Shown in pieces: positions 2,517-16,156 of a DNA stretch of 64,000 nucleotides. The DNA is from Minisyncoccota bacterium (GTDB taxonomy: Bacteria > Patescibacteriota > Minisyncoccia > JAHIHE01 > JAGLIN01): the NCBI GenBank assembly GCA_041661265.1, contig JBAZUT010000003.1, positions 15,191-79,190 on the forward strand, given 5' to 3'. Position 1 is the first letter of the stretch; each line of letters starts with the position of its first letter. A program made the position numbers and the translations under genes. Below the pieces are notes generated by a model, which saw only the letters and a list, made by a program, of their open reading frames with translations, was not told the DNA's origin and did no database searches.

Positions 2517-2574
2517 CCGCCCCGTTGTGGATAAAGGGTATTGACACGAATTTATTATGTGCTAGACTGGTATT

Positions 2575-2758
2575 GTAATTAAAAATATGAACTATTCAGC
2601 AGCACAATCAAATGAAGTAAGGATGACCAAAAAAGTTGGTCATGTTGTGGTTGTGGCAATTAAAAACCTACTAGTAAGGTAATTTGCTTTTGGCTTGATT
2701 AAGAGGAAACTACGTTAAGAATAAGGCTAAAAGCAAACTACTCGAAGTAGGTTTTTTG
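2575..2758 (+). ncRNA. candidate small RNA, copy A of a 4-member paralogous family (about 185 nt; ends approximate)
   Basis: Promoter TTGACA(2541-2546)-16-TAGACT(2563-2568). Core 'cttgattaagagg' is related to the cores of copies B, C and D. The distal stem acctact/agtaggt is followed by a T-run at 2751-2758. Confidence 0.4.
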
Positions 2759-3175
2759 TTTAATTATATATTTTCCCTGACTGATTGTATTGCTGCGAAG
2801 AATGCAGTTGTTAGTGAAAATATAGCTGCACATTGAGATCGCGATGATTTCCCATAAAGAGATCGTTAAAAAATGGCGTCAATCAAGCCGGAGGTTTTGA
2901 GCGAAATGCTACTACAATTGCGTTTTGCGGCAGGAAATATCTTTCAAGAAAGAAGCTTTGAATTTTCAGAGCAACACCATGGATCCCGCAACAACCGAAT
3001 CAATCTCAATTGTTTTCAGCCGTCACTAATCAATGCGGGATATGAAGAATAAAAAAAATATCTTCATATCCCAATCTCTCCCTTGTTTTTTTAAAACAGA
3101 TTTCTGAACAGTGGGATCAGAAATTTGCGTTAAAAAGATCAAAACGCGGTAAATTAAAAAAAAGGAGGATAAAAA

Positions 3176-3322
3176 ATGGTGTATTTTGCACAGGACGAGT
3201 CCGTAATAAACGGAATAGTGGACTCAAAAAAGAGCGAAGCCGACAAAGACAAGTATGGATTGCGCGATGAGCAATTCGATGTCGCAAGAAACACTGGCAA
3301 GGCACAAGAGTTTGGGGAATAG
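3176..3322 (+). CDS. small hydrophilic protein (48 aa), paralog of the 3513 ORF
   Basis: Strong RBS AAGGAGG 7 nt upstream. N-terminus MVYFAQDES and a G-L-R-DEQ motif are shared with the 3513 ORF. Missing from the ORF track because it is under 60 aa. Confidence 0.4.
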   Translation: MVYFAQDESVINGIVDSKKSEADKDKYGLRDEQFDVARNTGKAQEFGE

Positions 3323-3512
3323 GACTAAATATTCCCCGCTCGTATTTTAGAAAGTTTGTTTTTGTCCGCATGAAGCGAGCAGAAATAAGCTCTATAAAAG
3401 ACGGGCTTAAACAGGATGATAAGCATGCCATCACGGCGCTTATACTTTCACGACTTGGAAAAAAAGCCAAGCACGGCAAGATCCTTGAAAATAATAGAAA
3501 AGAGGGAAAAAT

Positions 3513-3635
3513 ATGGTAAGTTTTGCAAAAGAAGGTTCAAAAATAACCGCGTTTGAAATAGAAAAAGAAAGCAGAGAGCGTTTTGGAAGAAAGGATGAGC
3601 AGAACATAAACGGTAATTTTGAAAGAGGAAATTAA
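3513..3635 (+). CDS. small hydrophilic protein (40 aa), paralog of the 3176 ORF
   Basis: RBS AGAGGGA. MVSFAKEGS...GRKDEQ aligns with the 3176 ORF. The ATG overlaps the stop of an upstream 49-aa ORF (3371-3519). Confidence 0.35.
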   Translation: MVSFAKEGSKITAFEIEKESRERFGRKDEQNINGNFERGN

Positions 3636-3655
3636 ATAAACCATATAAACAATAA

Positions 3656-3692
3656 GGGAAGCGGAAACTTGACCGCTTCCCGGCCATTTTTC
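3656..3692 (+). terminator. intrinsic terminator
   Basis: Perfect 9-bp stem gggaagcgg/ccgcttccc, then 'ggccatttttc'. Confidence 0.55.
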
Positions 3693-4050
3693 ATATGATC
3701 CCGTCCATGCTTATAAGGTTTACAGGCACTGACGGGCTTAAAATGAAAAGCCCTTACACAAATAAGAGAGGTTAAACAACTAAAAAAAGTTGGGTGCTAT
3801 CCGACCAACATTCGGAAAAAGTTCCTGCCTCTCTTATACCAATCATCTGCGTGATAATTGCGAACCTATCCCTGTTTTAATGATTTAAACCGGAGATAGG
3901 CTCACAAAGCCGAGAGTTGCGGGGCATGGCCAAACATGCCATGAAGAAGTGAAAGCACTTTATTTCTTAAGGGAATTATTTTCCGACCCCAGCTCTAAAC
4001 ACTGATAACATTCCGTTATCGAACAAAATAAACAGAAAGAGGAGATAAAC

Positions 4051-4215
4051 GTGGCAAATAAAGACAAAGCAAATGAAGACACCGGTAATACCGATGAGAG
4101 AAAAAATAAGATCGAACACAACAATGAGGTTCATGAGAAAATGAAAAATAAAGATGCCGCCGGAATAATCGGCGACAAGTTCGTGGATGATCACTATGTA
4201 CCGAGGTGCTATTGA
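4051..4215 (+). CDS. small K/N/E-rich protein (54 aa, GTG start)
   Basis: RBS AAGAGGAG 8 nt upstream of GTG. Followed by the terminator at 4215-4238 (gaggaca/tgtcctc plus T7). Confidence 0.35.
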   Translation: MANKDKANEDTGNTDERKNKIEHNNEVHEKMKNKDAAGIIGDKFVDDHYVPRCY

Positions 4216-4242
4216 GGACAAAATGTCCTCATTTTTTTATGC

Positions 4243-4270
4243 TTGACATTATTATAAAATGTATTATACT
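4243..4270 (+). promoter_or_regulatory. sigma70-like promoter for the leader and LeuA/CimA-family gene
   Basis: TTGACA(4243-4248)-16-TATACT(4265-4270). Confidence 0.45.
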
Positions 4271-4290
4271 GAAACAAGTTAATAAAAAAT

Positions 4291-4362
4291 ATGACCGGAA
4301 ATCATAATACAATCATCAGCATTATCATTAACCGCGGGGCTTTGTCCTGTCGGCTATTTTGA
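4291..4362 (+). CDS. putative isoleucine-rich attenuation leader peptide (23 aa: MTGNHNTIISIIINRGALSCRLF)
   Basis: Five Ile codons within six consecutive codons (atc atc agc att atc att). First ATG after an in-frame stop. Lies in the 200-nt leader of a branched-chain pathway gene. Confidence 0.4.
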   Translation: MTGNHNTIISIIINRGALSCRLF

Positions 4363-4390
4363 TGCAAAAAAAATAGCACACAAGATAAAG

Positions 4391-4416
4391 TCCCGGGAAA
4401 GCGCCCGGGATTTTAA
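4391..4416 (+). terminator. attenuator-type terminator in the leader
   Basis: Stem tcccggg/cccggga followed by 'ttttaaatt', about 30 nt after the leader stop and about 50 nt before the structural gene RBS. Confidence 0.4.
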
Positions 4417-4468
4417 ATTATCAAGAAATAAAAATAAATATCAGAACAAAAAAAGGAGGAATAGAACA

Positions 4469-5974
4469 TTGACATTTAGAAAAGAAATAAAAATTCTGGA
4501 CACAACGCTTAGAGACGGAGAACAGACTCCGGGAATATCATTCAGCAAGGAAAGCAAGATGGCCATTGCTGAAAATCTTGATCTGTTGGGAGTCGATGTC
4601 ATCGAGGTCGGATCTGTTATAACCTCGGAAGGCGAGCGGGAATTCGCGAAAGAGATCACTAAAAAGAAACGCGAAGGAAAAATAAAAGCCGAGCTTTGCA
4701 CATATTCCAGGATAAGGAAAGAAGATATCGACTATGCCAAAGAATGCGGTCTTGATTCCGTTCATCTTGTGGTTCCGGTTTCCGATCTGCATATAACTGA
4801 AAAGTTGAAGCAGGACAGGAAAACGGTCATGAATACGGCAATTGAAATGGTGAAGTACGCCAAATCTCTCGGGCTGACAGTCGAACTCAGCGGAGAAGAC
4901 GCTTCGCGCGCGGATATGGTATTCCTGAAGGAATTATATAATGCGGGAATAGACGCAGGCGCAGACAGGCTGTGTTTCTGCGATACTGTCGGTATTCTGA
5001 CTCCGGAAAGGACATACGAGATATTTCTTGAGCTTTCAAAGCTTCGCGCCCCGATCAGTATACATTGCCATAATGATTTCGGAATGGCAACGGCTAATAC
5101 TGTCGCGGCACTCCGGGCTGGAGCCGCACAGGCCCACGTAACGATCAACGGGATCGGAGAGCGCGCAGGAAACACTTCTCTTGAAGAGGTTGTAATGACT
5201 CTCTATTCTTTATATAAGAAAGAGACGAATATAAAGACGAGAAACCTGTATAAATCCTCAAGGCTTGTCAGCAGGCTTAGCGGGATACCCGTTGCTCTCA
5301 ATAAGGCGATAGTCGGCGGAAATTCGTTCACGCATGAAGCGGGAATACACGTGCATGGCCTGAAGGCGAACACTGCGACATACGAGCCGATCACGCCGGA
5401 GCTTGTCGGACGCGAAAGAAGGATCCTTCTTGGAAAGCATGCTGGCAGAGCATCTGTCGAACTCGCAATGAGGGAACTTGGACTTACCGCGGATGACAAG
5501 CAGATAAATGAGATAACAAAGCGGGTAAAGGAGGTTGGAGACAAAGGCAAGCGCGTAACTGATGCCGATTTCGAAAAGATCGCCGAAGTGGTGCTCGGCA
5601 TATACAAAGAAGCAAAAGTCAAGCTCGAAGAACTGACGGTCGTTTCCGGGAATACAGTGATGCCGACGGCGTCGATCAAGATCCGCGTGAACGGAAAGCA
5701 GATCGTCGAGGCCGGAGTCGGCACAGGTCCCGTAGATGCGGCAAGAAATGCATTGGAAAAGGCTCTGAGTGCGATCGGAGACATCCGGCTTGAGGAATAT
5801 CATGTGGATGCCATCGAAGGCGGCACTAATGCGTTGGTCGAGGTCTGGGTGAAACTCAGCAAAGACGGAAAAACCATAACGGCGAAAGGCGCCAGGACGG
5901 ATATTATCATGGCTTCAGTCGAAGCGATGCTGGAAGGCATAAACCGCCTTTTGAACGGCAAGAATAAAGAATAA
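4469..5974 (+). CDS. 2-isopropylmalate synthase / (R)-citramalate synthase family (LeuA/CimA), TTG start
   Basis: HMGL-like N-terminus 'ILDTTLRDGEQTPG' and 'HCHNDFGMATANTVAALRAGA', plus a C-terminal LeuA-dimerisation-like region. RBS AGGAGG. The Ile-rich leader favours CimA. Confidence 0.8.
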   Translation: MTFRKEIKILDTTLRDGEQTPGISFSKESKMAIAENLDLLGVDVIEVGSVITSEGEREFAKEITKKKREGKIKAELCTYSRIRKEDIDYAKECGLDSVHLVVPVSDLHITEKLKQDRKTVMNTAIEMVKYAKSLGLTVELSGEDASRADMVFLKELYNAGIDAGADRLCFCDTVGILTPERTYEIFLELSKLRAPISIHCHNDFGMATANTVAALRAGAAQAHVTINGIGERAGNTSLEEVVMTLYSLYKKETNIKTRNLYKSSRLVSRLSGIPVALNKAIVGGNSFTHEAGIHVHGLKANTATYEPITPELVGRERRILLGKHAGRASVELAMRELGLTADDKQINEITKRVKEVGDKGKRVTDADFEKIAEVVLGIYKEAKVKLEELTVVSGNTVMPTASIKIRVNGKQIVEAGVGTGPVDAARNALEKALSAIGDIRLEEYHVDAIEGGTNALVEVWVKLSKDGKTITAKGARTDIIMASVEAMLEGINRLLNGKNKE

Positions 5975-6062
5975 TAAAGAAATAGAGAGCTTAAACGTAA
6001 GCTCCTTTTTTATTTTCTCAAAAAGTGATATTCTTAGTGTGTGAATAATTAATCATAAAAAT

Positions 6063-7211
6063 ATGGAATTTTCCGATAGGGCGAAACAGATGAAGGGTTC
6101 GGCAACTTTGTTTTGGGATATGAAGGTGAAAGAGGCGATGAAGCTGGATGCAAGCGTCATAAATCTTACTATCGGCCAGCCCGATTTCGATACTCCGGAA
6201 TTTCTTTCGCAGGCGATAAGGGCGGTTTCAGGCAAGACAGGCGTGAACCGATATGCGAATACGCAGGGAGAGCCGGAGCTGAGAAAGATATTAGCCGATA
6301 TATTGAAACAAAAGAAGGACGTGGAATACGATGAAAGCGAGATTATCTGGACGAGCTCCAAGGAGGCCATATTTCTGGCTGTCTCGGTTCTTGTCGGAAA
6401 AGGCGATGAGGTGATCTTGCTGAGTCCATGCTGGCCGACCTATGGCGAAGTTGTGAATTATTGCGACGGCAAGGCTGTGTACGTCGGGACTGACCGGAAT
6501 TTTCATCCTGTTGCGGAAGAAATAGAAAAAGCCGTGAACGAAAGAACGAAAGTGATAATCATCAACAGTCCGAATAATCCGTCGGGCGCGGTATATGGGG
6601 AACAAGAGATCGCCAAGATCGCCAAGATCGCGAAGGATCACGATCTTATTGTGATCTCTGATGAAGTTTACAGCAGCATTTTGTTTGATGGCGGGAAGCA
6701 TATTTCGATCGCAAGACTTGAGGGAATGAAGGAGAGAACGATAATCATCGAGGGATTCAGCAAAGGCCTTTCGGTTCCGGGTTTCAGGGCGGGCTATGCG
6801 GCGGGAGCAAAGGAAATTATCGGGAAAATAAGGGACCTTAAGAGCAATATCTCCGGCAACAGCGATTCGCTTATGCAGTATGCCATAATTGATTCGCTTT
6901 CAAACGGCCTGGAAGCTTATTTTGAATTTGAAAAAAAGCTCAAGGAGTCTTTTGAGAAGAGAAGGAATTTTTTCATTTCACATCTCAGCATACCGGGATC
7001 GATCGCGGCGCAGGGAGCATTCTATCTGTTCGCTCCGATCCCATCGAAAGTGTCGGGTTCAATGGAGTTTTGCGGTACAATGCTGGAGAAGAAGATCGGC
7101 ATCACGCCGGGCATATTCTTTCAGAAAGAAGGATATGCCAGAATCTCGTTCGCCGTTAAAGAGGAAAAACTTAAAATTGCGGCTGATATATTGCAAAATG
7201 AGTACAGATAG
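6063..7211 (+). CDS. class I/II PLP-dependent aminotransferase (aspartate/aromatic aminotransferase-like)
   Basis: 'INSPNNPSGAVY' and the PLP-lysine motif 'FSKGLSVPGFRAGY'. Confidence 0.75.
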   Translation: MEFSDRAKQMKGSATLFWDMKVKEAMKLDASVINLTIGQPDFDTPEFLSQAIRAVSGKTGVNRYANTQGEPELRKILADILKQKKDVEYDESEIIWTSSKEAIFLAVSVLVGKGDEVILLSPCWPTYGEVVNYCDGKAVYVGTDRNFHPVAEEIEKAVNERTKVIIINSPNNPSGAVYGEQEIAKIAKIAKDHDLIVISDEVYSSILFDGGKHISIARLEGMKERTIIIEGFSKGLSVPGFRAGYAAGAKEIIGKIRDLKSNISGNSDSLMQYAIIDSLSNGLEAYFEFEKKLKESFEKRRNFFISHLSIPGSIAAQGAFYLFAPIPSKVSGSMEFCGTMLEKKIGITPGIFFQKEGYARISFAVKEEKLKIAADILQNEYR

Positions 7212-7266
7212 AGCAGTTTTGCCGGGTGCTATTGACACGCGATTTCAGTCATGGTAATCTGAACTC

Positions 7267-7416
7267 AGTAAATAATAATCGTTATATGATAACACTGAAA
7301 AACCAAGCAATCTGTTGTTGTTGCGCTTTCTAAGAAGGCTGGTTTTATAGTGTTATGTAAATTATAATAAGATTTAGATGATACTGTGAAGCTGGTCTTT
7401 TTGGACCGGTTTTTTA
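7267..7416 (+). ncRNA. candidate small RNA, copy C of the paralogous family (about 150 nt)
   Basis: Promoter TTGACA(7232-7237)-17-TAATCT. Core 'ctttctaagaaggctggttttatagtgttatg' is homologous to copy B 'ccttccaataagataggtcgttttgtgatgag'. Terminator ggtct/ggacc plus T6 at 7394-7415. Confidence 0.45.
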
Positions 7417-7447
7417 GTTGTGTACATTGAAAAAGAGGTGAACATAC

Positions 7448-7567
7448 ATGCAGGAAGATAATGATAAGATCAATAAAAACAAAAATAAACAGGAGAATGA
7501 AGACGGATCAAAAAAAGATCTGAGAAAAAGAAAAAGGGGTTCGATCGCAGGTCCCGGCGGATGCTAG
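7448..7567 (+). CDS. small K-rich peptide (39 aa), speculative
   Basis: RBS AGAGGTG, then MQEDNDKINKNKNKQENEDGSKKDLRKRKRGSIAGPGGC. Composition resembles the 4051 ORF. Confidence 0.2.
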   Translation: MQEDNDKINKNKNKQENEDGSKKDLRKRKRGSIAGPGGC

Positions 7568-7596
7568 GACCGCTGAATCCGTCGAAAGAAACGTTT

Positions 7597-7713
7597 GCCG
7601 AGGTGGCCGAGAAGGATAGGCGGACTTCGTCTTGCTGAAAAGCCAGACTATGTCCCGCCAAAGGCAGAAGACAGCAGATCTTCAAAACACAGGTTCGAAT
7701 CCTGTCCTTGGCT
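7597..7713 (+). other. tRNA-like element, non-canonical (117 nt). Canonical 3' half, Leu-like 5' half, about 45-nt insertion between them
   Basis: Exact T-arm acagg-TTCGAAT-cctgt (7689-7705). The 3' acceptor strand ccttggc pairs with gccgagg at 7597-7603, allowing one G.U. 'tg' (U8, G9) and a D-arm gcc-gagaaGGata-ggc follow, like tRNA-Leu 'GCCGAGGTGG'. A stem-loop gaaga-cagcaga-tcttc (7667-7683) sits five nt before the T-arm. Confidence 0.35.
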
Positions 7714-7760
7714 TTCGAATTATTATTCAGAAAAAATAAAAAACAAAGGAGAAGATAAAA

Positions 7761-8435
7761 GTGGACGAAAATAAAAACAAGATCATATCTGTTCTCAACA
7801 GCCGCGGTGTAAGAAGAGAACAGCTCGACAGTGAAACGTTAAAAGACATCGAAAACATAATTTCCGCATGCGGAACAGAACCGATCAAGCTGGTCGGATA
7901 TTGGGGGGTCGGTGAAAAGCAAGAACCGACCGAGATAGACCGCAAAGCCCTAGATAAATTATCCGATATAATGAAGATGACCGACGATCGGATCAAAGTG
8001 CATCTGATATTGGCGGATAAGCATGGCGAGTTCAATGGCTATGAAAATGATATTTATCTCAATAAGATATCTTCAATAGCCGGAGAAAGGAATATCAGTA
8101 CCGCATTTCTGAGCGCGATATATCATGAAGTGGGCCTGGATGCCGCGGATCTTACAAATGTAAGCGATGACATCTGGAATAAATTTCCGGAATGTTACAG
8201 GTGTATTATCGAGAAAAGAGCGGGAATACATCAAAAGAAATGCGAAGCATCCGAAGATGCGAAAAGATATCTGCACATGACGCAGGTTGAAAAACAGAAA
8301 ATCGGAGCAGTTTATCCGAACTGCATATGGTTCACATATGGAGACATCAAGAACCTGAAGGATCTTTTTCCCAGGCCGGTAATTTCGATCTGGCCGATCA
8401 AAAGAGGGAAATCGGTACTGCCATGGTTCAGCTAG
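7761..8435 (+). CDS. hypothetical protein (224 aa, GTG start)
   Basis: RBS AAGGAG. No recognisable family. Followed by the terminator gggtgag/ctcaccc plus T6 at 8437-8470. Confidence 0.5.
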   Translation: MDENKNKIISVLNSRGVRREQLDSETLKDIENIISACGTEPIKLVGYWGVGEKQEPTEIDRKALDKLSDIMKMTDDRIKVHLILADKHGEFNGYENDIYLNKISSIAGERNISTAFLSAIYHEVGLDAADLTNVSDDIWNKFPECYRCIIEKRAGIHQKKCEASEDAKRYLHMTQVEKQKIGAVYPNCIWFTYGDIKNLKDLFPRPVISIWPIKRGKSVLPWFS

Positions 8436-8539
8436 CGGGTGAGATATAAACCAAACTCACCCTTTTTTATTTTAAATTATCTGATATAATTAACGTAATG
8501 CATGAACGAGAATGCTTATAAATCAACTAATTCAATTTT

Positions 8540-9355
8540 ATGGAAACTGCAGTAAGCAAATCTGTCTGGTTAAATGAACTTACCTGGCAGGACGTCGCGG
8601 AATATTTAAAACGGGACGATATTCTTATTATTCCGGTAGGTTCGACCGAACAGCATGGTCCAGCCGCTCCGCTGGGTCTTGATACATACGCCGCGATCGC
8701 ATTGGCCGATGATGCGGCCAAGAGAGCGAATGTCCTCTCTGCGCCGCCTTTGTGGTTCGGAGATTCATCTCATCATTCTAAATTTCCCGGCACAATATCC
8801 ATAAGGAGCGAAACATTGACTGAACTTATGAAAGATATTCTCAGGAACGTCATAAAAAATGGATTTAAGAAAGTGTTGATCATCAATGGCCACAAGAGCG
8901 CCAATCTGCCGGGCTTGATCAGCGCTGCGAAATATGTCCATGAGTATGATCATCCGAAAAGTTTTATTGCGGTGATCGATCCGATGAAGATCGCAAAAGG
9001 GATCGCAGCAAAAACTAAGGAAGAACCGGAGCATCATGCAGGGGAGCTGGAAACATCGCATCTTATGTATAAGTATCCGAATCTTATAGATAAGGAAAAG
9101 CTTTCCAAGAATAATATCGATGCGGAAAAGATTTTTTCCAAGTTTTTCAGTTTCGATCTGTTTGGCGGAGGAAAGGATGTCATAGATATCGTATGGAATT
9201 CCAGCGAGCAGCGCGAGTTCACGCCTTCGGGCGCATTTTCCGCTTCAAATAGGGCCTCTGCCGAAAAAGGAAAAGCGTATCATGATTACATGGTCGATAA
9301 TATCGTTGAATTTATTGGATGGCTTAGAAAGTATAATGGGCCTATCGGCAGATAG
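8540..9355 (+). CDS. creatininase-family amidohydrolase
   Basis: 'IIPVGSTEQHGP' and the 'LIINGHKS' fold signature. Confidence 0.65.
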   Translation: METAVSKSVWLNELTWQDVAEYLKRDDILIIPVGSTEQHGPAAPLGLDTYAAIALADDAAKRANVLSAPPLWFGDSSHHSKFPGTISIRSETLTELMKDILRNVIKNGFKKVLIINGHKSANLPGLISAAKYVHEYDHPKSFIAVIDPMKIAKGIAAKTKEEPEHHAGELETSHLMYKYPNLIDKEKLSKNNIDAEKIFSKFFSFDLFGGGKDVIDIVWNSSEQREFTPSGAFSASNRASAEKGKAYHDYMVDNIVEFIGWLRKYNGPIGR

Positions 9356-9388
9356 CAGTTTTATATGGATCAGGATTAATGAAACACA

Positions 9389-10330
9389 ATGAAATCAATA
9401 GAGATCGTACGAAAACTCGCGAGTCTTTCTCCGAGGCAGTTCGCCGGAGAGAAGCTAGCGAAAAATTATATAATCAAGATGCTCAAAGGGAATTCTGTGG
9501 ATTACAGTCTGCAGAACTTTGAAGTTGCCGTTCCGTCGTATGCGAAATATCATCTGAAGGCGGACGGGAAGAGCATAAAATGCATACCGACATCATTGGT
9601 CGGAGGAACGGTAGGGGAAGGATGCGATATAATAAGCTCATTGGATGCTTCATATGAAGGCGGTACATGCGGTAATATAAATTATAATCCTCATTCAGAC
9701 GGCATCTCACTGGCTAATTTCTATGATTCGCCGTCCTTTGCGGTTTCGAGGAGGGATGTGAAATTTATCAAAAATGCCGCAAAGATCGAGGGGCTGATAA
9801 AGATCAAAAAGCGAAAATATACATCATGCAATATTCTTGCGGGAAACAGGATCGATTCCAAAAATATATTTTTCGCCCACTACGACTGCTTTTTTGAAGG
9901 AGCGGTCGACAATGCCAGCGGCGTGGCAGTTTGTATGAGCTTGGTTAAAAATAATAAAAATATACTGAAAGATAATCTTATTGTTTTTTGCGGTGCGGAA
10001 GAGCTTTCGTACGATAGGCCTTTCTATTGGGGAAAGTGTTTCAGAGCTTTTGAGTCTAGGAACAGGAGGATAATGAAAAACGCAAAGAAGGTTATAATCG
10101 TAGATTGCGTCGGAACGGATAATGCCGAGGTTAGGAACGACGAGGAAGCGGTGTCTTTGTACTTTGCAAAGAAAAATAATGATAAAAAGAAGGTACTCGT
10201 GGTAACGTCGGTAGAAAGAAGACCTGAAAAATTTATGAGCGTGTATCATAGCAAGGCGGATCGTGCGAGCTGCGTTCGTGAGAAATATCTGCAGAACGCT
10301 TTCGAAAAATGTTTAAGCATAATCGAATAA
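9389..10330 (+). CDS. M28/M20-type zinc peptidase-like protein
   Basis: 'FFAHYDC', then 'GAVDNASGVA', then 'GAEELS' (HxD...D...EE metal-ligand pattern). Confidence 0.5.
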   Translation: MKSIEIVRKLASLSPRQFAGEKLAKNYIIKMLKGNSVDYSLQNFEVAVPSYAKYHLKADGKSIKCIPTSLVGGTVGEGCDIISSLDASYEGGTCGNINYNPHSDGISLANFYDSPSFAVSRRDVKFIKNAAKIEGLIKIKKRKYTSCNILAGNRIDSKNIFFAHYDCFFEGAVDNASGVAVCMSLVKNNKNILKDNLIVFCGAEELSYDRPFYWGKCFRAFESRNRRIMKNAKKVIIVDCVGTDNAEVRNDEEAVSLYFAKKNNDKKKVLVVTSVERRPEKFMSVYHSKADRASCVREKYLQNAFEKCLSIIE

Positions 10331-10331
10331 T

Positions 10332-11435
10332 ATGATCGGGGAACTGCAAAAATTGATAAGATTTAAGACGGTTGTCGGAAATCACAAAGAGAACGGCAAG
10401 GCTTTGAAGTGGGTCAGATCCGAATTAGCCGGTCTGGATGTCGATGTGAGGGAATTCGAGTCGGATGGATATCGATCGATCGTCATTACGACGCAAAAGA
10501 CTATGAAGCCTAAAGTTTTTCTGGCGGCTCACATGGATGTTGCCAAGGCATCAAATGATCTGTTTATTCCCAGGATATCCGGCGATAAATTGTTTGGACG
10601 AGGCGCATATGATATGAAATTCGCGATCGCTTGTTATTTGAGGTTATTGAAGGAGTTGAAGAAAGATCTTTTGAAATATGATCTGGGAATCATGATCACA
10701 TCAGATGAAGAGTGTGGAGGGAAGAACGGGGCCGGATATCTTCTTGGTAAAGGATACGGATGCGACGCTGTTGTGCTTCCCGATGGAAGCGAGAATTGGA
10801 AAATTGAAAAAGCTTCGAAAGGCGTGTGGTGTTTTGTCGTAAAAAGCTATGGAAAGTCGGCTCATCCGTCTATGCCGTGGAAAGGTATAAATGCGATCGA
10901 AGCATTGCTGGATTATTTCAGCGAGCTGCAGAAACCGTTCAAAACGGAACCGTGCGGAGATCCGCTGCATATCCATTCAACGATCGATATAAATGAATTC
11001 AATACGGGCCGTACGGGGGATAATCTTCCGGATTATGCGGAAGCAATGGCCGATATCTTCTTCATAAGCGGGAAAGAATATGAAAAGATCGTCAGAATGG
11101 AAAAAAGCATCAGAAAGAAATATTCCGGAATAAAGCTCATGACGACTATTTATAATCCGAGCGTAAGGATAAATATAAAAAACAGATTTGCGGATGAATT
11201 TTACCGGATCGCGCGGAATCTGTATGGCATAAGGAAAGAGGCGATGTTTACCCATGGAACATCCGACGCTCATTATTTTGTGGAAAAGAATATATCGGTT
11301 ATTGAAACGCGGCCAAAGGGCGGTGATTTTCATGGCGATGGAGAATGGATAGATCTTGTTGATCTGGAAAGGTTCTATCAGGTCCTGAAAGAATTTACGG
11401 TAAGAATGTCCGCGGTGGATAATGAGAAGATTTGA
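10332..11435 (+). CDS. M20 family peptidase (ArgE/DapE-like deacylase)
   Basis: 'AAHMDVA', 'GRGAYDMK', 'SDEECGG'. Confidence 0.65.
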   Translation: MIGELQKLIRFKTVVGNHKENGKALKWVRSELAGLDVDVREFESDGYRSIVITTQKTMKPKVFLAAHMDVAKASNDLFIPRISGDKLFGRGAYDMKFAIACYLRLLKELKKDLLKYDLGIMITSDEECGGKNGAGYLLGKGYGCDAVVLPDGSENWKIEKASKGVWCFVVKSYGKSAHPSMPWKGINAIEALLDYFSELQKPFKTEPCGDPLHIHSTIDINEFNTGRTGDNLPDYAEAMADIFFISGKEYEKIVRMEKSIRKKYSGIKLMTTIYNPSVRINIKNRFADEFYRIARNLYGIRKEAMFTHGTSDAHYFVEKNISVIETRPKGGDFHGDGEWIDLVDLERFYQVLKEFTVRMSAVDNEKI

Positions 11436-11487
11436 CAATATATTAAAATAGATATAAATTGACAATATAGAACTATATATATGAAAA

Positions 11488-11603
11488 TACATTCAATAAA
11501 CAGCTATTTCTTTTATTTTAGCCTTCCAATAAGATAGGTCGTTTTGTGATGAGGATAAAATAAAGAAAAAAGCAAAATGGCCTATCGGGGGCTGTTTTTT
11601 GTT
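11488..11603 (+). ncRNA. candidate small RNA, copy B of the paralogous family (about 115 nt)
   Basis: Two TTGACA -35 elements at 11432 and 11459. Core 'atttcttttattttagccttccaataagataggtcgttttgtgatgagg' is about 75% identical to copy D. The 3' hairpin is followed by T6 at 11595-11600. Confidence 0.5.
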
Positions 11604-11706
11604 ATGACATTGAAAACATATTATCGGTTTTAATACGGCATAAAACCGATAAAGTGGGTTCAAATGGACCTTGATAATCAAATAATACAAAAAAGGAGGA
11701 AAGAAG

Positions 11707-11988
11707 ATGATAGCGGGAAAGCCCAAAGATGAGATCGATGAGATGATCTATGCACTTCGCGAGATCTGCCCGGACGTCGGAATAATAAGAAAAAATGGAA
11801 AAATTATTATGACGGGAAATGGGATCATGCGCGTAAAAAAAACAGTGAAGATATTATCCGGAATAGAGAGGATCGAATCCATCAATAAATATGGCACACG
11901 GTGCATACTTGAGATGAAGGGCGACGAGGCGATCATAATGAATGTTGCCAGCAATGAACGAAGTGAGGAATTATGCGTTATAGCGTAA
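11707..11988 (+). CDS. hypothetical small protein (93 aa)
   Basis: Strong RBS AAGGAGG. First gene of a 4-gene small-protein cassette. Confidence 0.5.
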   Translation: MIAGKPKDEIDEMIYALREICPDVGIIRKNGKIIMTGNGIMRVKKTVKILSGIERIESINKYGTRCILEMKGDEAIIMNVASNERSEELCVIA

Positions 11989-12278
11989 TGGATATTGAAG
12001 ACGAAACATCTGAGCTGGTGGCCATGAAGAGGTCTGGAAGCGATGATTCGGCAGACATTCTCTGCTGGAGGATCGGCCAGATGCTGCCGGAAATCGCTAT
12101 CGGCCCAATGACAAGAAATGACAGGATAATGTCGGTGTTACAGAAAGTTGAAACGGCGATATGCTTCTTGTCGGACTCAAAAAACAAAAAAAATCTTGAG
12201 ATCGTGATCCGGAATAAAAAAGAAGAAATAAAAAAATCGGAGAGCCAAAGGGAAAATTTGGCTCTCCCCAACTTTTAA
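11973..12278 (+). CDS. hypothetical small protein (101 aa)
   Basis: Start overlaps the end of the upstream gene by 16 nt, which suggests translational coupling. Confidence 0.45.
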   Translation: MRYSVMDIEDETSELVAMKRSGSDDSADILCWRIGQMLPEIAIGPMTRNDRIMSVLQKVETAICFLSDSKNKKNLEIVIRNKKEEIKKSESQRENLALPNF

Positions 12279-12412
12279 TTTGATATGTTCAGCCATGGAC
12301 ACGGTTTTGCATCAGACGAAAGCTTTTAAAAAAGTTTCTGCCTGCGGCAAAAGCGGCTTGCGGGATAAGGCGATTGTCTTATTGAATTGAAAAAATAAAA
12401 GGAGGAAGAAAA

Positions 12413-12715
12413 TTGAAGGAAAAATGGAGCATAAGCGAAGAAGAAAAGATGATAATAGGTATGATAAGTGTTTATCGAAAGCGGATGAAGAAGTCAAAAA
12501 CGACCGCTAAAATGCTTTATTGCAGAGACCAGATGGATCGAAAAAAGGCTGAACTTGGCAGGCTGAGATCAAGGATCAGAGCGGCCGACTCGGAGAATGA
12601 GAACAGAAAAAGAAACAGGAATTATCCTCCGATGACGGATACGCCGGACCACTGTTCGACCTGCGACCAGAAGCTGAATGATACGTGGAATTGTCTCGGC
12701 TATCCCTCTGCATAA
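12413..12715 (+). CDS. hypothetical basic protein with Cys-rich C-terminus (100 aa, TTG start or internal ATG)
   Basis: RBS AGGAGG. Basic KRMKKSK stretch and C-terminal 'DHCSTCDQKLNDTWNC'. Confidence 0.4.
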   Translation: MKEKWSISEEEKMIIGMISVYRKRMKKSKTTAKMLYCRDQMDRKKAELGRLRSRIRAADSENENRKRNRNYPPMTDTPDHCSTCDQKLNDTWNCLGYPSA

Positions 12716-12746
12716 TGAATGTGACGATCGAAGAAGGTGAGTCAAA

Positions 12747-13091
12747 ATGGACAATATGGAATTAATGCCGCAATGGGCGAAAAATAGAGCTCCGTATTGG
12801 ATAAATGGCGATGAATGTCCCGCGTGCAACGGAGCGAACTATAAGATCGAGGTGATCGAGTGCAATGAATACCTGAAAACAGTCGAGATTCGCGCATTGT
12901 GCGGCGATTGTGGGCACCGGGAAAATAAATGTATATCGGAATGTTGGACGGAATGGGAGATCTGCCCCAGATGCAAAAAGAAAAGCGATGTAGCGGAAAA
13001 CAGTATTCCCGGAGGAGGGAATATCGTGCTGGCAGTGTCTTTCATATCCCGATGTTCCCATTGCGGATTTGAAGAATCATTCGGCTATTGA
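12747..13091 (+). CDS. zinc-ribbon-rich protein (114 aa, at least four CxxC pairs)
   Basis: CPACN, CGDCGH, CPRCKK and CSHCG motifs. RBS GAAGGTGAG. Confidence 0.5.
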   Translation: MDNMELMPQWAKNRAPYWINGDECPACNGANYKIEVIECNEYLKTVEIRALCGDCGHRENKCISECWTEWEICPRCKKKSDVAENSIPGGGNIVLAVSFISRCSHCGFEESFGY

Positions 13092-13555
13092 AAACAAAGA
13101 CGTGGTACAAAAGGCAGGCTTCAGGCTTGCCTTATTTATTATAACAAAAACCACCGGCGTTAGCCGGTGTGTGCGTTTAGAGCGATAGCTCTTGTGTAAC
13201 TGTAATATAGTAATTGCCATATTATCATTCTAGGTCGTGTCATCCTGAACTTGTTTCAGGATCTTCGTTACATTTCGTAAGAGTGATGTAGTAAAGCAAT
13301 AACGAAATAAAACGAGGATTCCGGATCCCTCCGGAGGCGGGCAGGCAAGTCCGGAATGACAAACAGGCAGATAATCGATTAAGACAGATCAGAAACTACA
13401 TAAAAAACCAAGATGTAAACAGAGTTGAATTAGCACAACAGACGTTATGGAAAAAACAGGCATAGCCTGCCAAGCAGATACCCTCGGCGTCAAGCCGGGG
13501 GTATGTTCATTATTTTCGACATTGACACATGCCTGCATTGTGCTATAATGGCAAA

Positions 13556-13683
13556 GTAAGCTCAAATATCATGAAATACGGTATAAATAACAATTTCTTC
13601 TTTTTTAGCTATAACTTCCTTAAAAGATAGGTTATTTTGTGATAATTCAGATGAAAATAGCCTGTCGAAGAGGCTGTTTTTTA
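13556..13683 (+). ncRNA. candidate small RNA, copy D of the paralogous family (about 128 nt)
   Basis: Consensus promoter TTGACA(13522-13527)-16-TATAAT(13544-13549). Core 'atttcttcttttttagctataacttccttaaaagataggttattttgtgataa'. Terminator agcct/aggct plus T6 at 13659-13682. Confidence 0.55.
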
Positions 13684-13854
13684 ATGATATAAAGAACCAT
13701 TCAGTTTTCCACGCGATGGAAGATTGAATGGTAAGTTAAATCTTGCCAATGTGCGCCTCGGTGGCTGAAAAGAGCGCCGGCATGAAACACCGGAATATGC
13801 GGATCAAAATTCCGCCCGAGGCAAAAAAATTAAAAAAATACAGGAGGAACCGAA

Positions 13855-14541
13855 TTGATACAAGGTTTGAAGATTTTCAATGACCCGGAAAAGCTTCCTC
13901 AGGGCCCTAACGAGCAAGGATTGGCATTGCGGTCGGAACTCGTAAAGAAAATAACATGTTTTGTTTTGGGTCCCATGGGAACCAATATGGAACAGGCCTG
14001 CGAGCAATGGATTCGGGAGATGGGAATCGAAAACAAAACAGAAATTGTTCTTTGTTCGACCCCGGAAGAGTCGATCGAAAAAGCAAGAAGTGTTACCAGT
14101 GAGGGGCATGTTGCAACATTTTGGACATGCGCAGTCTATAATTGCCTGTGCAATGTTTTTTTCCAAAACCCGGATACGCTCACGTTCTTTGCGGAGAAGG
14201 TGATGATGCTGGATGAAATGCAGCTTGCGACGCGGCGTGAAAAGATACATGAGATCAGAGACGGGATCCTTCCCGATTCGTGGATCATTGCATCGCACCC
14301 CTCTCCGGCGCCCCTGCTCAATGAAGTAAAGTGCAGCGTCAAGCTGACTACAAGCAATGCCAAGGCGGCAGAATTGTGCAGTGCGCTCGAGGCGGATGCG
14401 TGCATTACGACAGAAAGCGCAAGAAAGCTGAATGGACTCGAAACACTCCATGTTTTTGGAAGCCCGAAAATGGTTTTTTTTGCGGGGATCACGACTCACG
14501 GAGTGAGGGTTGTTTCAAAGGCATATAATGAGGCGAAATAA
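13855..14541 (+). CDS. prephenate dehydratase-like (PDT-fold) protein without ACT domain. Possibly a prephenate decarboxylase-like paralog. TTG start
   Basis: RBS AGGAGG. 'CFVLGPMGTNMEQA' is a PDT N-terminal motif and 'IASHPSPAPL' follows. The TRF-type motif is degenerate. Confidence 0.45.
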   Translation: MIQGLKIFNDPEKLPQGPNEQGLALRSELVKKITCFVLGPMGTNMEQACEQWIREMGIENKTEIVLCSTPEESIEKARSVTSEGHVATFWTCAVYNCLCNVFFQNPDTLTFFAEKVMMLDEMQLATRREKIHEIRDGILPDSWIIASHPSPAPLLNEVKCSVKLTTSNAKAAELCSALEADACITTESARKLNGLETLHVFGSPKMVFFAGITTHGVRVVSKAYNEAK

Positions 14542-14641
14542 CGCCTTATAAAAACAGGCATCGTGTGTTAGAATATAAACTATGAGCATGATGCCTTCAA
14601 TTTTATTTTAAACGACTTTATAATAATTTAAACAATATAAT

Positions 14642-16156
14642 ATGAAAATTGCTATTATCGGCGCGAACGGAGATATGGGAAAATTCCTGACCAGATTTCT
14701 GTCGCTACTGGGAGAGGTCAAGCCCATATCCAGGAATGTCTCGACTAAAGAAGACTGGCGCGAGGCATGGACTGCGGACGTGATCTGGCTTAGCATTCCG
14801 CGGGATGCGATCGATGGCCTGCTCGAGGGGAAGAAATTAGACAAGAGGCAGCTTATGGTCGATATCTGTTCGATCAAGAGAAATTTATCAGAGGTTATAA
14901 AGAAAACGGGAGCATCACATTTGTCTTTGCATCCTTTGCATGGTCCAAATATTCCCTTGAACGGTCAAAGATGGGCCGTCATAGACGGTTCAAGAAGGAG
15001 TGAACGGAATCAAAACGCCAAGAGAACTCTGGAGTTTCTGAAAGATCAGGGCATACAGCTTTTGGGCGCCAAATCCGAAGACTATCATGATTTTATGCTG
15101 GGATTAACTCTAAGTGTGCCGGAGCTGCTTACTGTCGTGATCGAGGAGCTGAAAAACGAATATATCAAAAATTGCAAAGAGATCAAGCCGACGAGGAGCG
15201 AGATGAATAAATGGTCTGTCCCGGCGTCCAATGCAATGTATGGGGCTTGTCATCATGTGATAAACAGCACGGCTTACTGGCTCAGGAAGGAGATTCTTTG
15301 TAATGCGCACAAGGACCTCTTGAAAAGCTCCAGGAAGGCTTTCTTAAGGCTTTCAAAATTAACCGATCAGGATATAAAGAAAAAATTCAAAGAACAGGAA
15401 AGAGATATAAAAACATTGTCGCCGGAAGAAAGGATCAAGATCAGATTGTGGATCGAGAATTGGTTCTCGGATGCGACGAAGTCCATATTTATGGAAAAGG
15501 ACTATTATAAGACAAAACCGGAGATCGCCATACAGTTCCAGGAGAACATTTCGGAAATATTTCCGGCTTCGACCGTGAAGCTTAGGGTCGGGATCCATGG
15601 CATAAAGGGGTGCTTTACGCATGAATCTATTCTTCGTTTTTGCGAAGAGGCCAAGGTCGATGAGACAAAACTGGATCTCAAGTTTCTTGTAACTGCCGAG
15701 AATGTTCTGCGCGAGCTGGATGAAGGCAAGATCGACAGGGGAATATTTGCGATGGCAAATTCCGGATCGGGGGCCTATGTTACAAGCATGGATCCCATGG
15801 GAAAATACACGTATAAGGTCATGGCTGTCTATGGGATGAAGATCATGCAGTGTCTTCTCTCGTATCCAAGCGAAAAAATAGAAAATATAAATGAAGTTTT
15901 CGGCCATCCGCAGGCCGTCAGCCAGTGCAAAAGAACCCTTGCAGAAAAATACCCATATCTGAAAATAACCTACGGAAAAGACGACGACGATACCGCTTTA
16001 TGCGCAAAGAGGATAGCGGAAGGCGAGCTTCCGAGAACGACAGCGACACTTGCGTCTCAGGTTGCGGCTAAGCTTTATAATTTGAACATATTGTCTTACA
16101 ATATGCACCATGATCCTTTCAATACGACAACTTTCTTGATTGTAAAAAAGCGGTAA
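14642..16156 (+). CDS. fused prephenate dehydrogenase (TyrA) and prephenate dehydratase (PDT) protein
   Basis: N-terminus 'MKIAIIGANGDMGKF' (NAD fold) with 'SLHPLHGP'. C-terminal PDT domain 'GIHGIKGCFTHE...FGHPQAVSQC...NTTTFLIV'. Confidence 0.7.
   Translation: MKIAIIGANGDMGKFLTRFLSLLGEVKPISRNVSTKEDWREAWTADVIWLSIPRDAIDGLLEGKKLDKRQLMVDICSIKRNLSEVIKKTGASHLSLHPLHGPNIPLNGQRWAVIDGSRRSERNQNAKRTLEFLKDQGIQLLGAKSEDYHDFMLGLTLSVPELLTVVIEELKNEYIKNCKEIKPTRSEMNKWSVPASNAMYGACHHVINSTAYWLRKEILCNAHKDLLKSSRKAFLRLSKLTDQDIKKKFKEQERDIKTLSPEERIKIRLWIENWFSDATKSIFMEKDYYKTKPEIAIQFQENISEIFPASTVKLRVGIHGIKGCFTHESILRFCEEAKVDETKLDLKFLVTAENVLRELDEGKIDRGIFAMANSGSGAYVTSMDPMGKYTYKVMAVYGMKIMQCLLSYPSEKIENINEVFGHPQAVSQCKRTLAEKYPYLKITYGKDDDDTALCAKRIAEGELPRTTATLASQVAAKLYNLNILSYNMHHDPFNTTTFLIVKKR

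Follow-up and report, generated by a model that had tools for sequence, protein, structure and literature searches.

Five probable leader-peptide attenuators within 11 kb of a Candidatus Paceibacterota genome

Overview of the Elements

We analyzed a 64,000-nt stretch of contig JBAZUT010000003.1 (hereafter, the window) from a genome of Candidatus Paceibacterota, a lineage of the candidate phyla radiation (CPR) assigned to the phylum Minisyncoccota in the NCBI taxonomy, which we take to correspond to CPR/Patescibacteria. Five elements lying within 11 kb of this window, denoted A (Val/Ile/Leu), the Ile element, C (Cys), B (Tyr/Phe), and D (Phe), are very probably ribosome-mediated (leader-peptide) transcription attenuators. 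Four of them, A to D, had been described in an original prediction as paralogous copies of a novel small RNA (sRNA) family or, alternatively, of a family of cis-regulatory leaders, tied to small-protein genes. The elements are most likely leader-peptide attenuators and not an sRNA family: cis-acting 5' leaders ending in conditional terminators stand, whereas the trans-acting family does not. Leader-peptide attenuation is a textbook mechanism, and instead of a new kind of element we see its classical ribosome-mediated form; the main result is a correction, with no new sRNA family. While the mechanism is ordinary, the host lineage and some of the neighboring features are unusual.

Every result is computational and was obtained with the window sequence and its metagenomic relatives. 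Syntenic relatives L001–L006 are metagenomic contigs with homologs of the 224-aa protein encoded at 7761–8435 (57–95% identity to the window protein), and L087–L089, also syntenic, are contigs with homologs of the prephenate dehydratase (PDT)-like protein (64–80% identity to the window protein). A wider sample was collected with a PDT-like profile and comprised 54 metagenomic loci of Parcubacteria, 48 of them with sufficient upstream sequence.

According to the proposed mechanism, a sigma-70-type promoter would yield a transcript whose first 45–95 nt encode a peptide of 15–31 residues in which codons for a single amino acid, or for a single amino acid class, form a run. If the cognate charged tRNA is scarce, the ribosome would stall on the run, leaving the RNA that starts at or near the leader stop codon free for base pairing with the terminator 5' arm; once this antiterminator has formed, RNA polymerase would read into the operon. 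If the amino acid is plentiful, the ribosome would reach the stop codon and cover the 5' strand of the antiterminator, the terminator hairpin with its U run would form, and a leader RNA of about 130–185 nt would be released. What was computed directly comprises the open reading frames (ORFs) and their conservation, the alternative helices, and folding as a function of ribosome occupancy; from these we infer mini-ORF translation, ribosome stalling, and conditional termination in vivo. Four of the elements follow the classical design, the exception being A, whose polarity is uncertain.

Shared Architecture

The four initially described loci are indeed intergenic and lie on the plus strand, as do all window features given below. 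A fifth element with the same architecture, at 4243–4416, had been overlooked, and so had the short ORF present within every element. These five ATG-initiated ORFs (15–31 codons) each lie between the promoter and the terminator, are co-oriented with the operon, and start 18–25 nt after the end of the −10 box, a distance that rules out leaderless translation of the mini-ORFs. Their codon runs, VVVV in A, IISIII in the Ile element, CCCC in C, YFFYF in B, and FFFF in D, are kept in four to nine relatives each. All three indels found inside leader ORFs are 3 nt long and in frame; indels in the downstream loops are of any length. It is the mini-ORF, presumably translated, rather than a conserved RNA core as had been supposed, that carries the information.

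The similarity of B and D proved real: their local alignment has 78 identities over 91 aligned positions (approximately 68% if gaps are counted), with z = 13.5 and none of 300 shuffles scoring as high. Paralogy of all four copies did not hold, as A and C compared with B, D, or each other yield z from −0.6 to 2.3 in the shuffle test, i.e., chance similarity, and in pairwise alignments of all five elements against shuffles every pair other than B–D remains at the chance level (z ≤ 3.0). The suggested common core, CTTNNAWTAAGAKRGGNTTTTGTGAT, has no matches in the window even if three mismatches are allowed; the segment cttgattaagagg quoted for A lies within a hairpin loop, away from the site that corresponds to the B/D core; and the start proposed for B, 11488, falls inside the leader ORF, which begins at 11481.

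Sigma-70-type promoters, predicted for every copy, were recovered by the consensus scan in A, B, and D, whereas in C the TTGACA box is good and the −10 box is weak, the promoter being read by eye. Likewise, the terminal hairpin followed by a T run is clear in B, C, and D, and weak in A; the scan located it in B and C, and folding in D and A. The terminator follows the leader ORF and precedes the first structural gene. Its energy is −7 to −15 kcal/mol in all elements but A, and in these four, unlike in A, an antiterminator sequesters its 5' arm. All elements stand directly upstream of operons and are co-oriented with them, the terminators overlapping the antiterminators. Small ORFs are present downstream of each copy, as noted earlier, but an association with small-protein genes is not a general property of the elements, since two precede ordinary amino acid enzymes, namely, a CimA/LeuA-like synthase and prephenate dehydratase/dehydrogenase. 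The full Rfam scan agrees with the earlier statement that no characterized RNA family is recognizable, as only tRNA-model matches exceed the threshold; at gathering and permissive thresholds, no riboswitch, T-box, or sRNA family was found, and the matches are limited to the tRNA model and sub-threshold Phe and His leaders.

Leader Peptides and Alternative Helices

The codon run fits the downstream genes wherever these are identifiable, namely, in D and the Ile element. The promoter of D (13522–13549, TTGACA-16-TATAAT with TG) has 12 out of 12 consensus matches in the scan, and the leader ORF at 13571–13630 encodes MKYGINNNFFFFSYNFLKR with Phe codons at 13595–13606. In the following structures (13626–13682, including the T run), the antiterminator is formed by 13626–13638 paired with 13657–13669 and contains the stop codon UAG (13628–13630), and the terminator is 13658–13663:13671–13676. 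The genes after this leader (13855–16156) are a PDT-like gene (13855–14541) and a PDH_N+PDT fusion (14642–16156), so that prephenate dehydratase and the prephenate dehydrogenase (PDH)–PDT protein match the Phe pathway.

The Ile element has a promoter at 4243–4270 (TTGACA-16-TATACT, 11 out of 12 consensus matches by the scan) and a leader ORF at 4291–4362, encoding MTGNHNTIISIIINRGALSCRLF, with Ile codons at 4312–4329. The run IISIII or IIISIII is present in all five Ile leaders, the differences being synonymous (ATC/ATT) or an ACA to ATA change that adds Ile. The region 4333–4415 comprises the antiterminator, in which 4333–4356 pair with 4371–4396 and the stop codon is in the apical loop, the terminator 4390–4397:4404–4411, and the T run. 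The downstream genes (4469–7211) encode a CimA/LeuA-like synthase (4469–5974; domains HMGL-like, HCS_D2, and LeuA_dimer) and a class I/II aminotransferase (6063–7211; Aminotran_1_2). This citramalate/isopropylmalate synthase-like protein and the aminotransferase match the pathway of the sensed amino acid.

Element B starts with a promoter at 11432–11460 (TTGACA-17-TAAATT by the scan), which has equivalents in L001 and L002, followed by the leader ORF for MKIHSINSYFFYFSLPIR (11481–11537; Tyr/Phe codons 11505–11519). L001, L002, and L087 retain the aromatic run as YFFYF or FYFYFYF. Its structures span 11503–11603 and end in the T run. The 14-bp antiterminator is formed by 11533–11546 (GAUAGGUCGUUUUG, which holds the UAG stop codon at 11535–11537) and 11573–11586, the latter including the 5' arm of the terminator 11574–11583:11589–11598. 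In addition, the Tyr/Phe codons (11503–11520) can pair with 11555–11573, and in ribosome-free RNA the resulting 1:2 helix prevents the antiterminator from forming. Taken together, the B/D-type leaders contain the runs YFFYF, FYFYFYF, FFFF, FYFFFF, and WFYFYF, an aromatic run being present in nine out of nine sequences. In distant Parcubacteria, 23 of the 48 PDT-like loci have an upstream mini-ORF rich in Phe and Tyr codons followed by a terminator, e.g., MQNVTNRNYFYFYFFSFFQREVGLSI, MIKTNQSYFFFFFRLFTREVGLSI, and MILTANNSYFAFYFIN; such leaders also occur in L092 (Staskawiczbacteria) and L090 ("bacterium CG10_46_32"). Thus, Phe/Tyr leaders recur across Parcubacteria.

The promoter of element C occupies 7233–7260, with TTGACA at 7233; it is not listed by the scan, and in the relatives the −10 box reads TATCAT, TAGAAT, or TAATAT at the same spacing. 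The leader ORF (7286–7333) encodes MITLKNQAICCCCAF, with Cys codons at 7313–7324. CCC or CCCC is retained in all six sequences, i.e., the window and five relatives (MKTLNNQAICCCNL, MNKTLKNQSICCCCAF, MKTLNHQAICCCNL, MKTLNYQAIICCCNL, and MNKTLKNQAICCCCAF), and all indels are in frame. Within 7329–7418, the strand from 7329 pairs with 7376–7405 in an antiterminator helix of about 28–40 bp, the 40-pair version being kept in six sequences, and the terminator 7388–7398:7403–7413 is followed by the T run.

Element A has a promoter at 2541–2568 (TTGACA-16-TAGACT, TG-extended, by the consensus scan), whose TTGACA and TGnTAnAnT-type −10 box are conserved in L001, L002, and L003. The leader ORF at 2587–2682 encodes MNYSAAQSNEVRMTKKVGHVVVVAIKNLLVR, with a Val run at 2644–2655, Ile at 2659–2661, and Leu-Leu-Val at 2668–2676. 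It is kept in the same three relatives, where one in-frame indel of 3 nt occurs and the N-terminal half varies freely, and the four peptides follow the pattern GH(V/I)V(V/I)... IK(N/S)LLV. According to folding, two structures compete within 2665–2757: in one, 2665–2672 pair with 2746–2752 around the hairpin 2684–2697:2724–2738, and the alternative is a short hairpin 2738–2742:2746–2750 with a U run from 2752.

Folding With and Without a Ribosome

The effect of ribosome position was modeled by masking 28 nt for the ribosome and computing the partition function for the transcript cut off where the terminator stem ends, with the mean probability of terminator pairs, P(terminator), as the outcome. 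When the A-site was placed on the codon run, A, B, C, and D all gave a P(terminator) of 0.00, and codons 8–11 of the Ile leader gave 0.22–0.33. Moving the A-site to the stop codon raised the value to 0.82 for A, 0.93 for B, 0.77 for C, 0.94 for D, and 0.66 for the Ile element. Thus, in these calculations, the positional logic of attenuation holds in all five elements: a ribosome stalled on the run is predicted to spare the antiterminator, and a ribosome at the stop codon to mask it.

The helices themselves are retained in the nine B/D-type leaders, where 89% of antiterminator cells are paired, compared with 33–50% if the partner strand is slid, and 96% of terminator cells, compared with 44–69%; three antiterminator pairs have changed on both sides.

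Several observations weigh against leader-peptide attenuation. None of the five leader ORFs is preceded by a Shine–Dalgarno (SD) sequence, though the structural genes have strong AGGAGG motifs, and initiation of leader translation is hence an assumption. When no ribosome is modeled, the antiterminator wins in A, C, D, and the Ile element, with P(terminator) ≤ 0.02 (0.59 in B); since their untranslated RNA folds as the antiterminator, these four would be constitutively on unless efficiently translated. The 1:2 anti-antiterminator helix is formed only in B, the other four elements lacking it. The search for covarying base pairs recommended with the original prediction, when run on the B/D alignment, yielded covariation not exceeding that of column shuffles for either the antiterminator or the terminator. 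This lack of significance is explained by the near invariance of the helices, and because covariation is uninformative here, we rely on peptide conservation and occupancy folding. Further points concern particular elements. The terminator hairpin of A has only 5 bp (−3.4 kcal/mol), and the competing strand pairs with the 3' arm of the terminator, so that the long-range helix also abuts the U run; A is followed by about 300 nt of non-coding sequence and then tiny ORFs with no known link to the sensed amino acids. Hence A has the same parts as the other elements, but its regulatory direction is ambiguous, and it may have inverse polarity or work differently. The targets of B are orphan small proteins, also with no known link to Tyr or Phe.

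Alternative Explanations

If the units formed a trans-acting sRNA family, each would be a stand-alone sRNA gene whose product pairs with other mRNAs. Every unit does have its own promoter and terminator, no Rfam family exceeds the threshold, and attenuator RNAs may act in trans, e.g., rnTrpL in Sinorhizobium (PMC6614838). A discrete RNA of 130–185 nt is expected under this explanation; however, discrete transcripts of 115–185 nt, proposed earlier as a check, would fit both readings, as terminated leader RNAs in this size range are products of attenuators, too. What makes an sRNA family very improbable is that homology is limited to B and D with no common core, that the conserved feature is a reading frame, as seen from the codon runs, in-frame indels, and synonymous changes, and that the elements always precede co-oriented operons, with terminators overlapping antiterminators. 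The same conservation of ORFs could mean that the mini-ORFs are independent genes for functional small hydrophobic peptides, the hairpins being merely their terminators. In line with this, the C-terminal halves of the Ile (NRGALSCRLF) and A (IKNLLV) peptides are invariant, and leader peptides can act in trans, e.g., peTrpL (PMC7298713). Yet the nucleotides encoding these parts do not vary either and fall in RNA helices, the N-terminal parts drift freely, ribosome-binding sites (RBSs) are lacking, and across distant lineages only the one-amino-acid run is kept, matching the downstream pathway, all of which leaves micro-protein genes with a slim chance.

Finally, the leaders might be independent of translation, that is, riboswitches or protein-mediated or T-box-like attenuators with incidental ORFs. 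The absent SD sequences, the preference of untranslated RNA for the antiterminator in four elements, where another factor could tip the balance, and the tRNA-like RNAs nearby are all compatible with such a design. At the same time, no riboswitch or T-box model from Rfam matches even at E ≤ 10, no core resembling a ligand pocket is conserved among the elements, and the codon runs and frames are conserved across lineages whose RNA sequences otherwise differ, so we give this explanation little credence and retain ribosome-mediated attenuation.

Comparison With Known Systems

The design can be compared with enterobacterial attenuators and with Gram-positive and actinobacterial leader peptides (PMC3082878, PMC1262725, PMC11857589, PMC5794164). 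As in enterobacterial trpL, pheL, hisL, leuL, thrL, and ilvL/ivbL, there is a promoter, an ORF with a codon run, an antiterminator over the 5' arm of the terminator, and biosynthetic genes. Element B further resembles the enterobacterial attenuators in its 1:2 helix, which enforces termination when the leader is untranslated. The differences are the lack of SD sequences before the leader ORFs, the lack of the 1:2 anti-antiterminator in four of five elements, the CPR host, and the regulated genes, among them those of an archaeal-type CimA, of orphan proteins, and of tRNA-like RNAs. Rfam Phe_leader (RF01859), the best non-tRNA match of B among amino acid leader families, scores 34.1 bits with B and 17.6 bits with D against the threshold of 55, and His_leader (RF00514) scores 22.9 bits with the Ile element against the gathering threshold of 49. 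As these scores are below threshold, we see no sequence homology with either family; the elements are analogs and not members.

Element C is similar to actinobacterial Cys leaders (the cys and cbs operons, PMC1262725; mycobacterial polycysteine upstream ORFs, bioRxiv 10.1101/834739) in having a short ORF ahead of the operon, with consecutive Cys codons near its stop codon. The actinobacterial leaders have no recognizable terminator hairpin, and Rho-dependent or translational mechanisms have been proposed for them (PMC1262725; bioRxiv 10.1101/834739). In contrast, the Cys leader of element C is accompanied by a clear intrinsic terminator and an antiterminator of 40 pairs, and the operon has genes of peptidase-like and PvcA-fold proteins in place of cysK or cysE. 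Element A and the Ile element, with Val/Ile/Leu-rich peptides and several hairpins, resemble Gram-positive leaders of branched-chain amino acid genes (Corynebacterium ilvBNC; Staphylococcus and Listeria ilv-leu; PMC11857589, PMC5794164, PMC5864092). Unlike these, A has no ilv or leu genes after it and its competing helix uses the 3' arm of the terminator, and the Ile element, a leader of bacterial type, precedes a CimA-like gene with the nearest relatives in Methanoperedens.

A full-text literature search found no paper joining leader-peptide attenuation with the candidate phyla radiation, and in a looser search including Patescibacteria none of the top-ranked matches mentioned Patescibacteria. 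Five such switches within 11 kb of a Paceibacterota genome would reveal the amino acids sensed by these reduced, probably host-dependent bacteria, and would point to unannotated genes responding to Cys or Phe/Tyr limitation, namely, orphans, peptidases, and the PvcA-fold protein.

tRNA-Like RNAs With Matching Anticodons

Two RNAs downstream of C and D, at 7597–7713 and 13755–13823, both score 43.7 bits with the Rfam tRNA model, and neither is called by ARAGORN. Both depart from the standard tRNA (a cloverleaf with U33, the G18G19/T-Psi-C elbow, and no large insertion). The tRNA-Cys-like RNA (7597–7713) has the loop CAGCAGA with the anticodon GCA and A33, and an insertion of about 44–47 nt after the D arm. 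Its orthologs are found in L087 (3411–3483), L001 (9873–9945), L002 (9228–9302), and L003 (8659–8761), and L004 lacks the element. In L087 and L001 they look canonical and are called tRNA-Cys(gca) by ARAGORN; in L002 and L003 there are T-loop insertions and a degenerate anticodon arm, with the acceptor and T stems kept.

The tRNA-Phe-like RNA (13755–13823) lies between the terminator of D and the PDT-like gene. It has the loop AUGAAAC with the anticodon GAA and is devoid of G18G19 and of the T-Psi-C motif (UUC in the T loop). U33-GAA-A37 is conserved, as is a C31.A39 mismatch. In its orthologs (L087, 9896–9965; L001, 15976–16047), the acceptor, anticodon, and T stems contain compensatory changes, and the structure is thus under selection. 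In L001, the gene after this RNA encodes a 75-aa Lys-rich ORF and not a PDT-like protein. The covariance model of this RNA, run over 65 sources, found only the three sequences from which it had been built and none in the distant Parcubacteria loci; hence the RNA is clade-specific.

The Cys and Phe attenuators would therewith each also control a tRNA-like RNA with the matching anticodon. It is a speculative and rather unlikely idea that these RNAs are dedicated non-translational adaptors, serving tRNA-dependent amino acid salvage or modification, or feedback on their own charging. If they were adaptors, starvation for the same amino acid would switch on the tRNA-like RNA in a genome-reduced CPR symbiont. 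The anticodon-matched RNAs and their neighbors could merit follow-up.

Downstream Genes and Neighboring Features

The CimA-like protein encoded after the Ile leader is 73–77% identical to proteins of Candidatus Methanoperedens, the closest ones among GTDB species representatives, and this sequence similarity suggests gene transfer between archaea and CPR. The Methanoperedens loci have no Ile leader. A homologous Ile leader, MTLINKQQNIIISIIISRGILSCRSV, does precede the CimA-like gene of L059, a bacterial metagenome-assembled genome whose CimA-like protein shows 65% identity. The window encodes bacterial TopA (TopA_bact), DprA, FtsA, FtsZ, an LCP transferase, ComEC, and SMC. An archaeal origin of the window, considered because of the Methanoperedens-like CimA, was ruled out, as TopA_bact, DprA, FtsA, FtsZ, LCP, and ComEC are bacterial and the genome bears the NCBI name Candidatus Paceibacterota.

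The genes after the Cys leader extend over 7448–11435. A 39-aa ORF (7448–7567) is followed by the tRNA-Cys-like RNA, the gene of the 224-aa orphan (7761–8435), and genes of a creatininase-family protein (8540–9355), an M28-like protein (9389–10330), and an M20 peptidase (10332–11435). A tie of these peptidases and the PvcA-fold orphan to the Cys pathway is not evident; we suppose that, in an auxotroph, they could serve to free Cys from peptides, the peptidases being the relevant enzymes. The 224-aa orphan has only nine homologs among 5.8 billion clusters and no match in Pfam. A search of the PDB with the sequence profile of its family gave nothing meaningful, and the informative result came only from the fold search: the AlphaFold model (predicted local distance difference test score, pLDDT, 83) retrieved PIsnA/PvcA isonitrile synthases, catalytic domains of tyrosyl-tRNA synthetases, and cyclodipeptide synthases. 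Judged from this model, the protein resembles an amino acid-binding one with a fold like that of class I aminoacyl-tRNA synthetases, and its gene stands directly after the tRNA-Cys-like RNA.

The product of the 39-aa ORF is Lys-rich, the ORF has a strong RBS, and its C-terminus, GS-I-(A/T)-GPGG-(C/S), is conserved in L002, L003, and L087. By analogy, this ORF and the creatininase-family, M28-like, and M20 genes resemble a pathway with a peptide scaffold or one for ribosomally synthesized and post-translationally modified peptides.

The first gene after B (11707–11988) encodes a 93-aa orphan, conserved in L001, L002, and L087; in L087, its homolog is directly upstream of a D-type leader and the PDT operon. 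Only three homologs are present in the databases, Pfam gives no match at E ≤ 1, the AlphaFold model is poor (pLDDT 65), and Foldseek finds nothing at E < 0.2. Between the terminator of B and the RBS of this gene (11604–11706), two hairpins, TTATCGG...CCGATAA and GGTTCAAATGGACC, are conserved in L001, L002, and L087, the loops being variable; they may constitute a second regulatory or processing element.

Downstream of A, three tiny ORFs at 3176–3322, 3513–3635, and 4051–4215 (48, 40, and 54 aa, respectively) each have a strong AGGAGG and their own terminator, and appear not to be under leader-peptide control. None of the three matches Pfam. In L001 and L002, ORFs of similar size are called at the corresponding sites, and a 44-aa ORF of L087, with a shared GIVDS motif, is clearly related. 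The approximately 300 nt after the terminator of A (2760–3063) are conserved in L001 and end in a long hairpin, 3027–3063, with a T run. This region and another one, 3640–3960, are rich in non-coding sequence. Further conserved hairpin modules, such as gggcttaaaatgaaaagccc and aataagagagg...cctctcttatacc, are shared with L003 (4490–4640). Neither of these two stretches matches Rfam, and their hairpin modules may be other structured RNAs.

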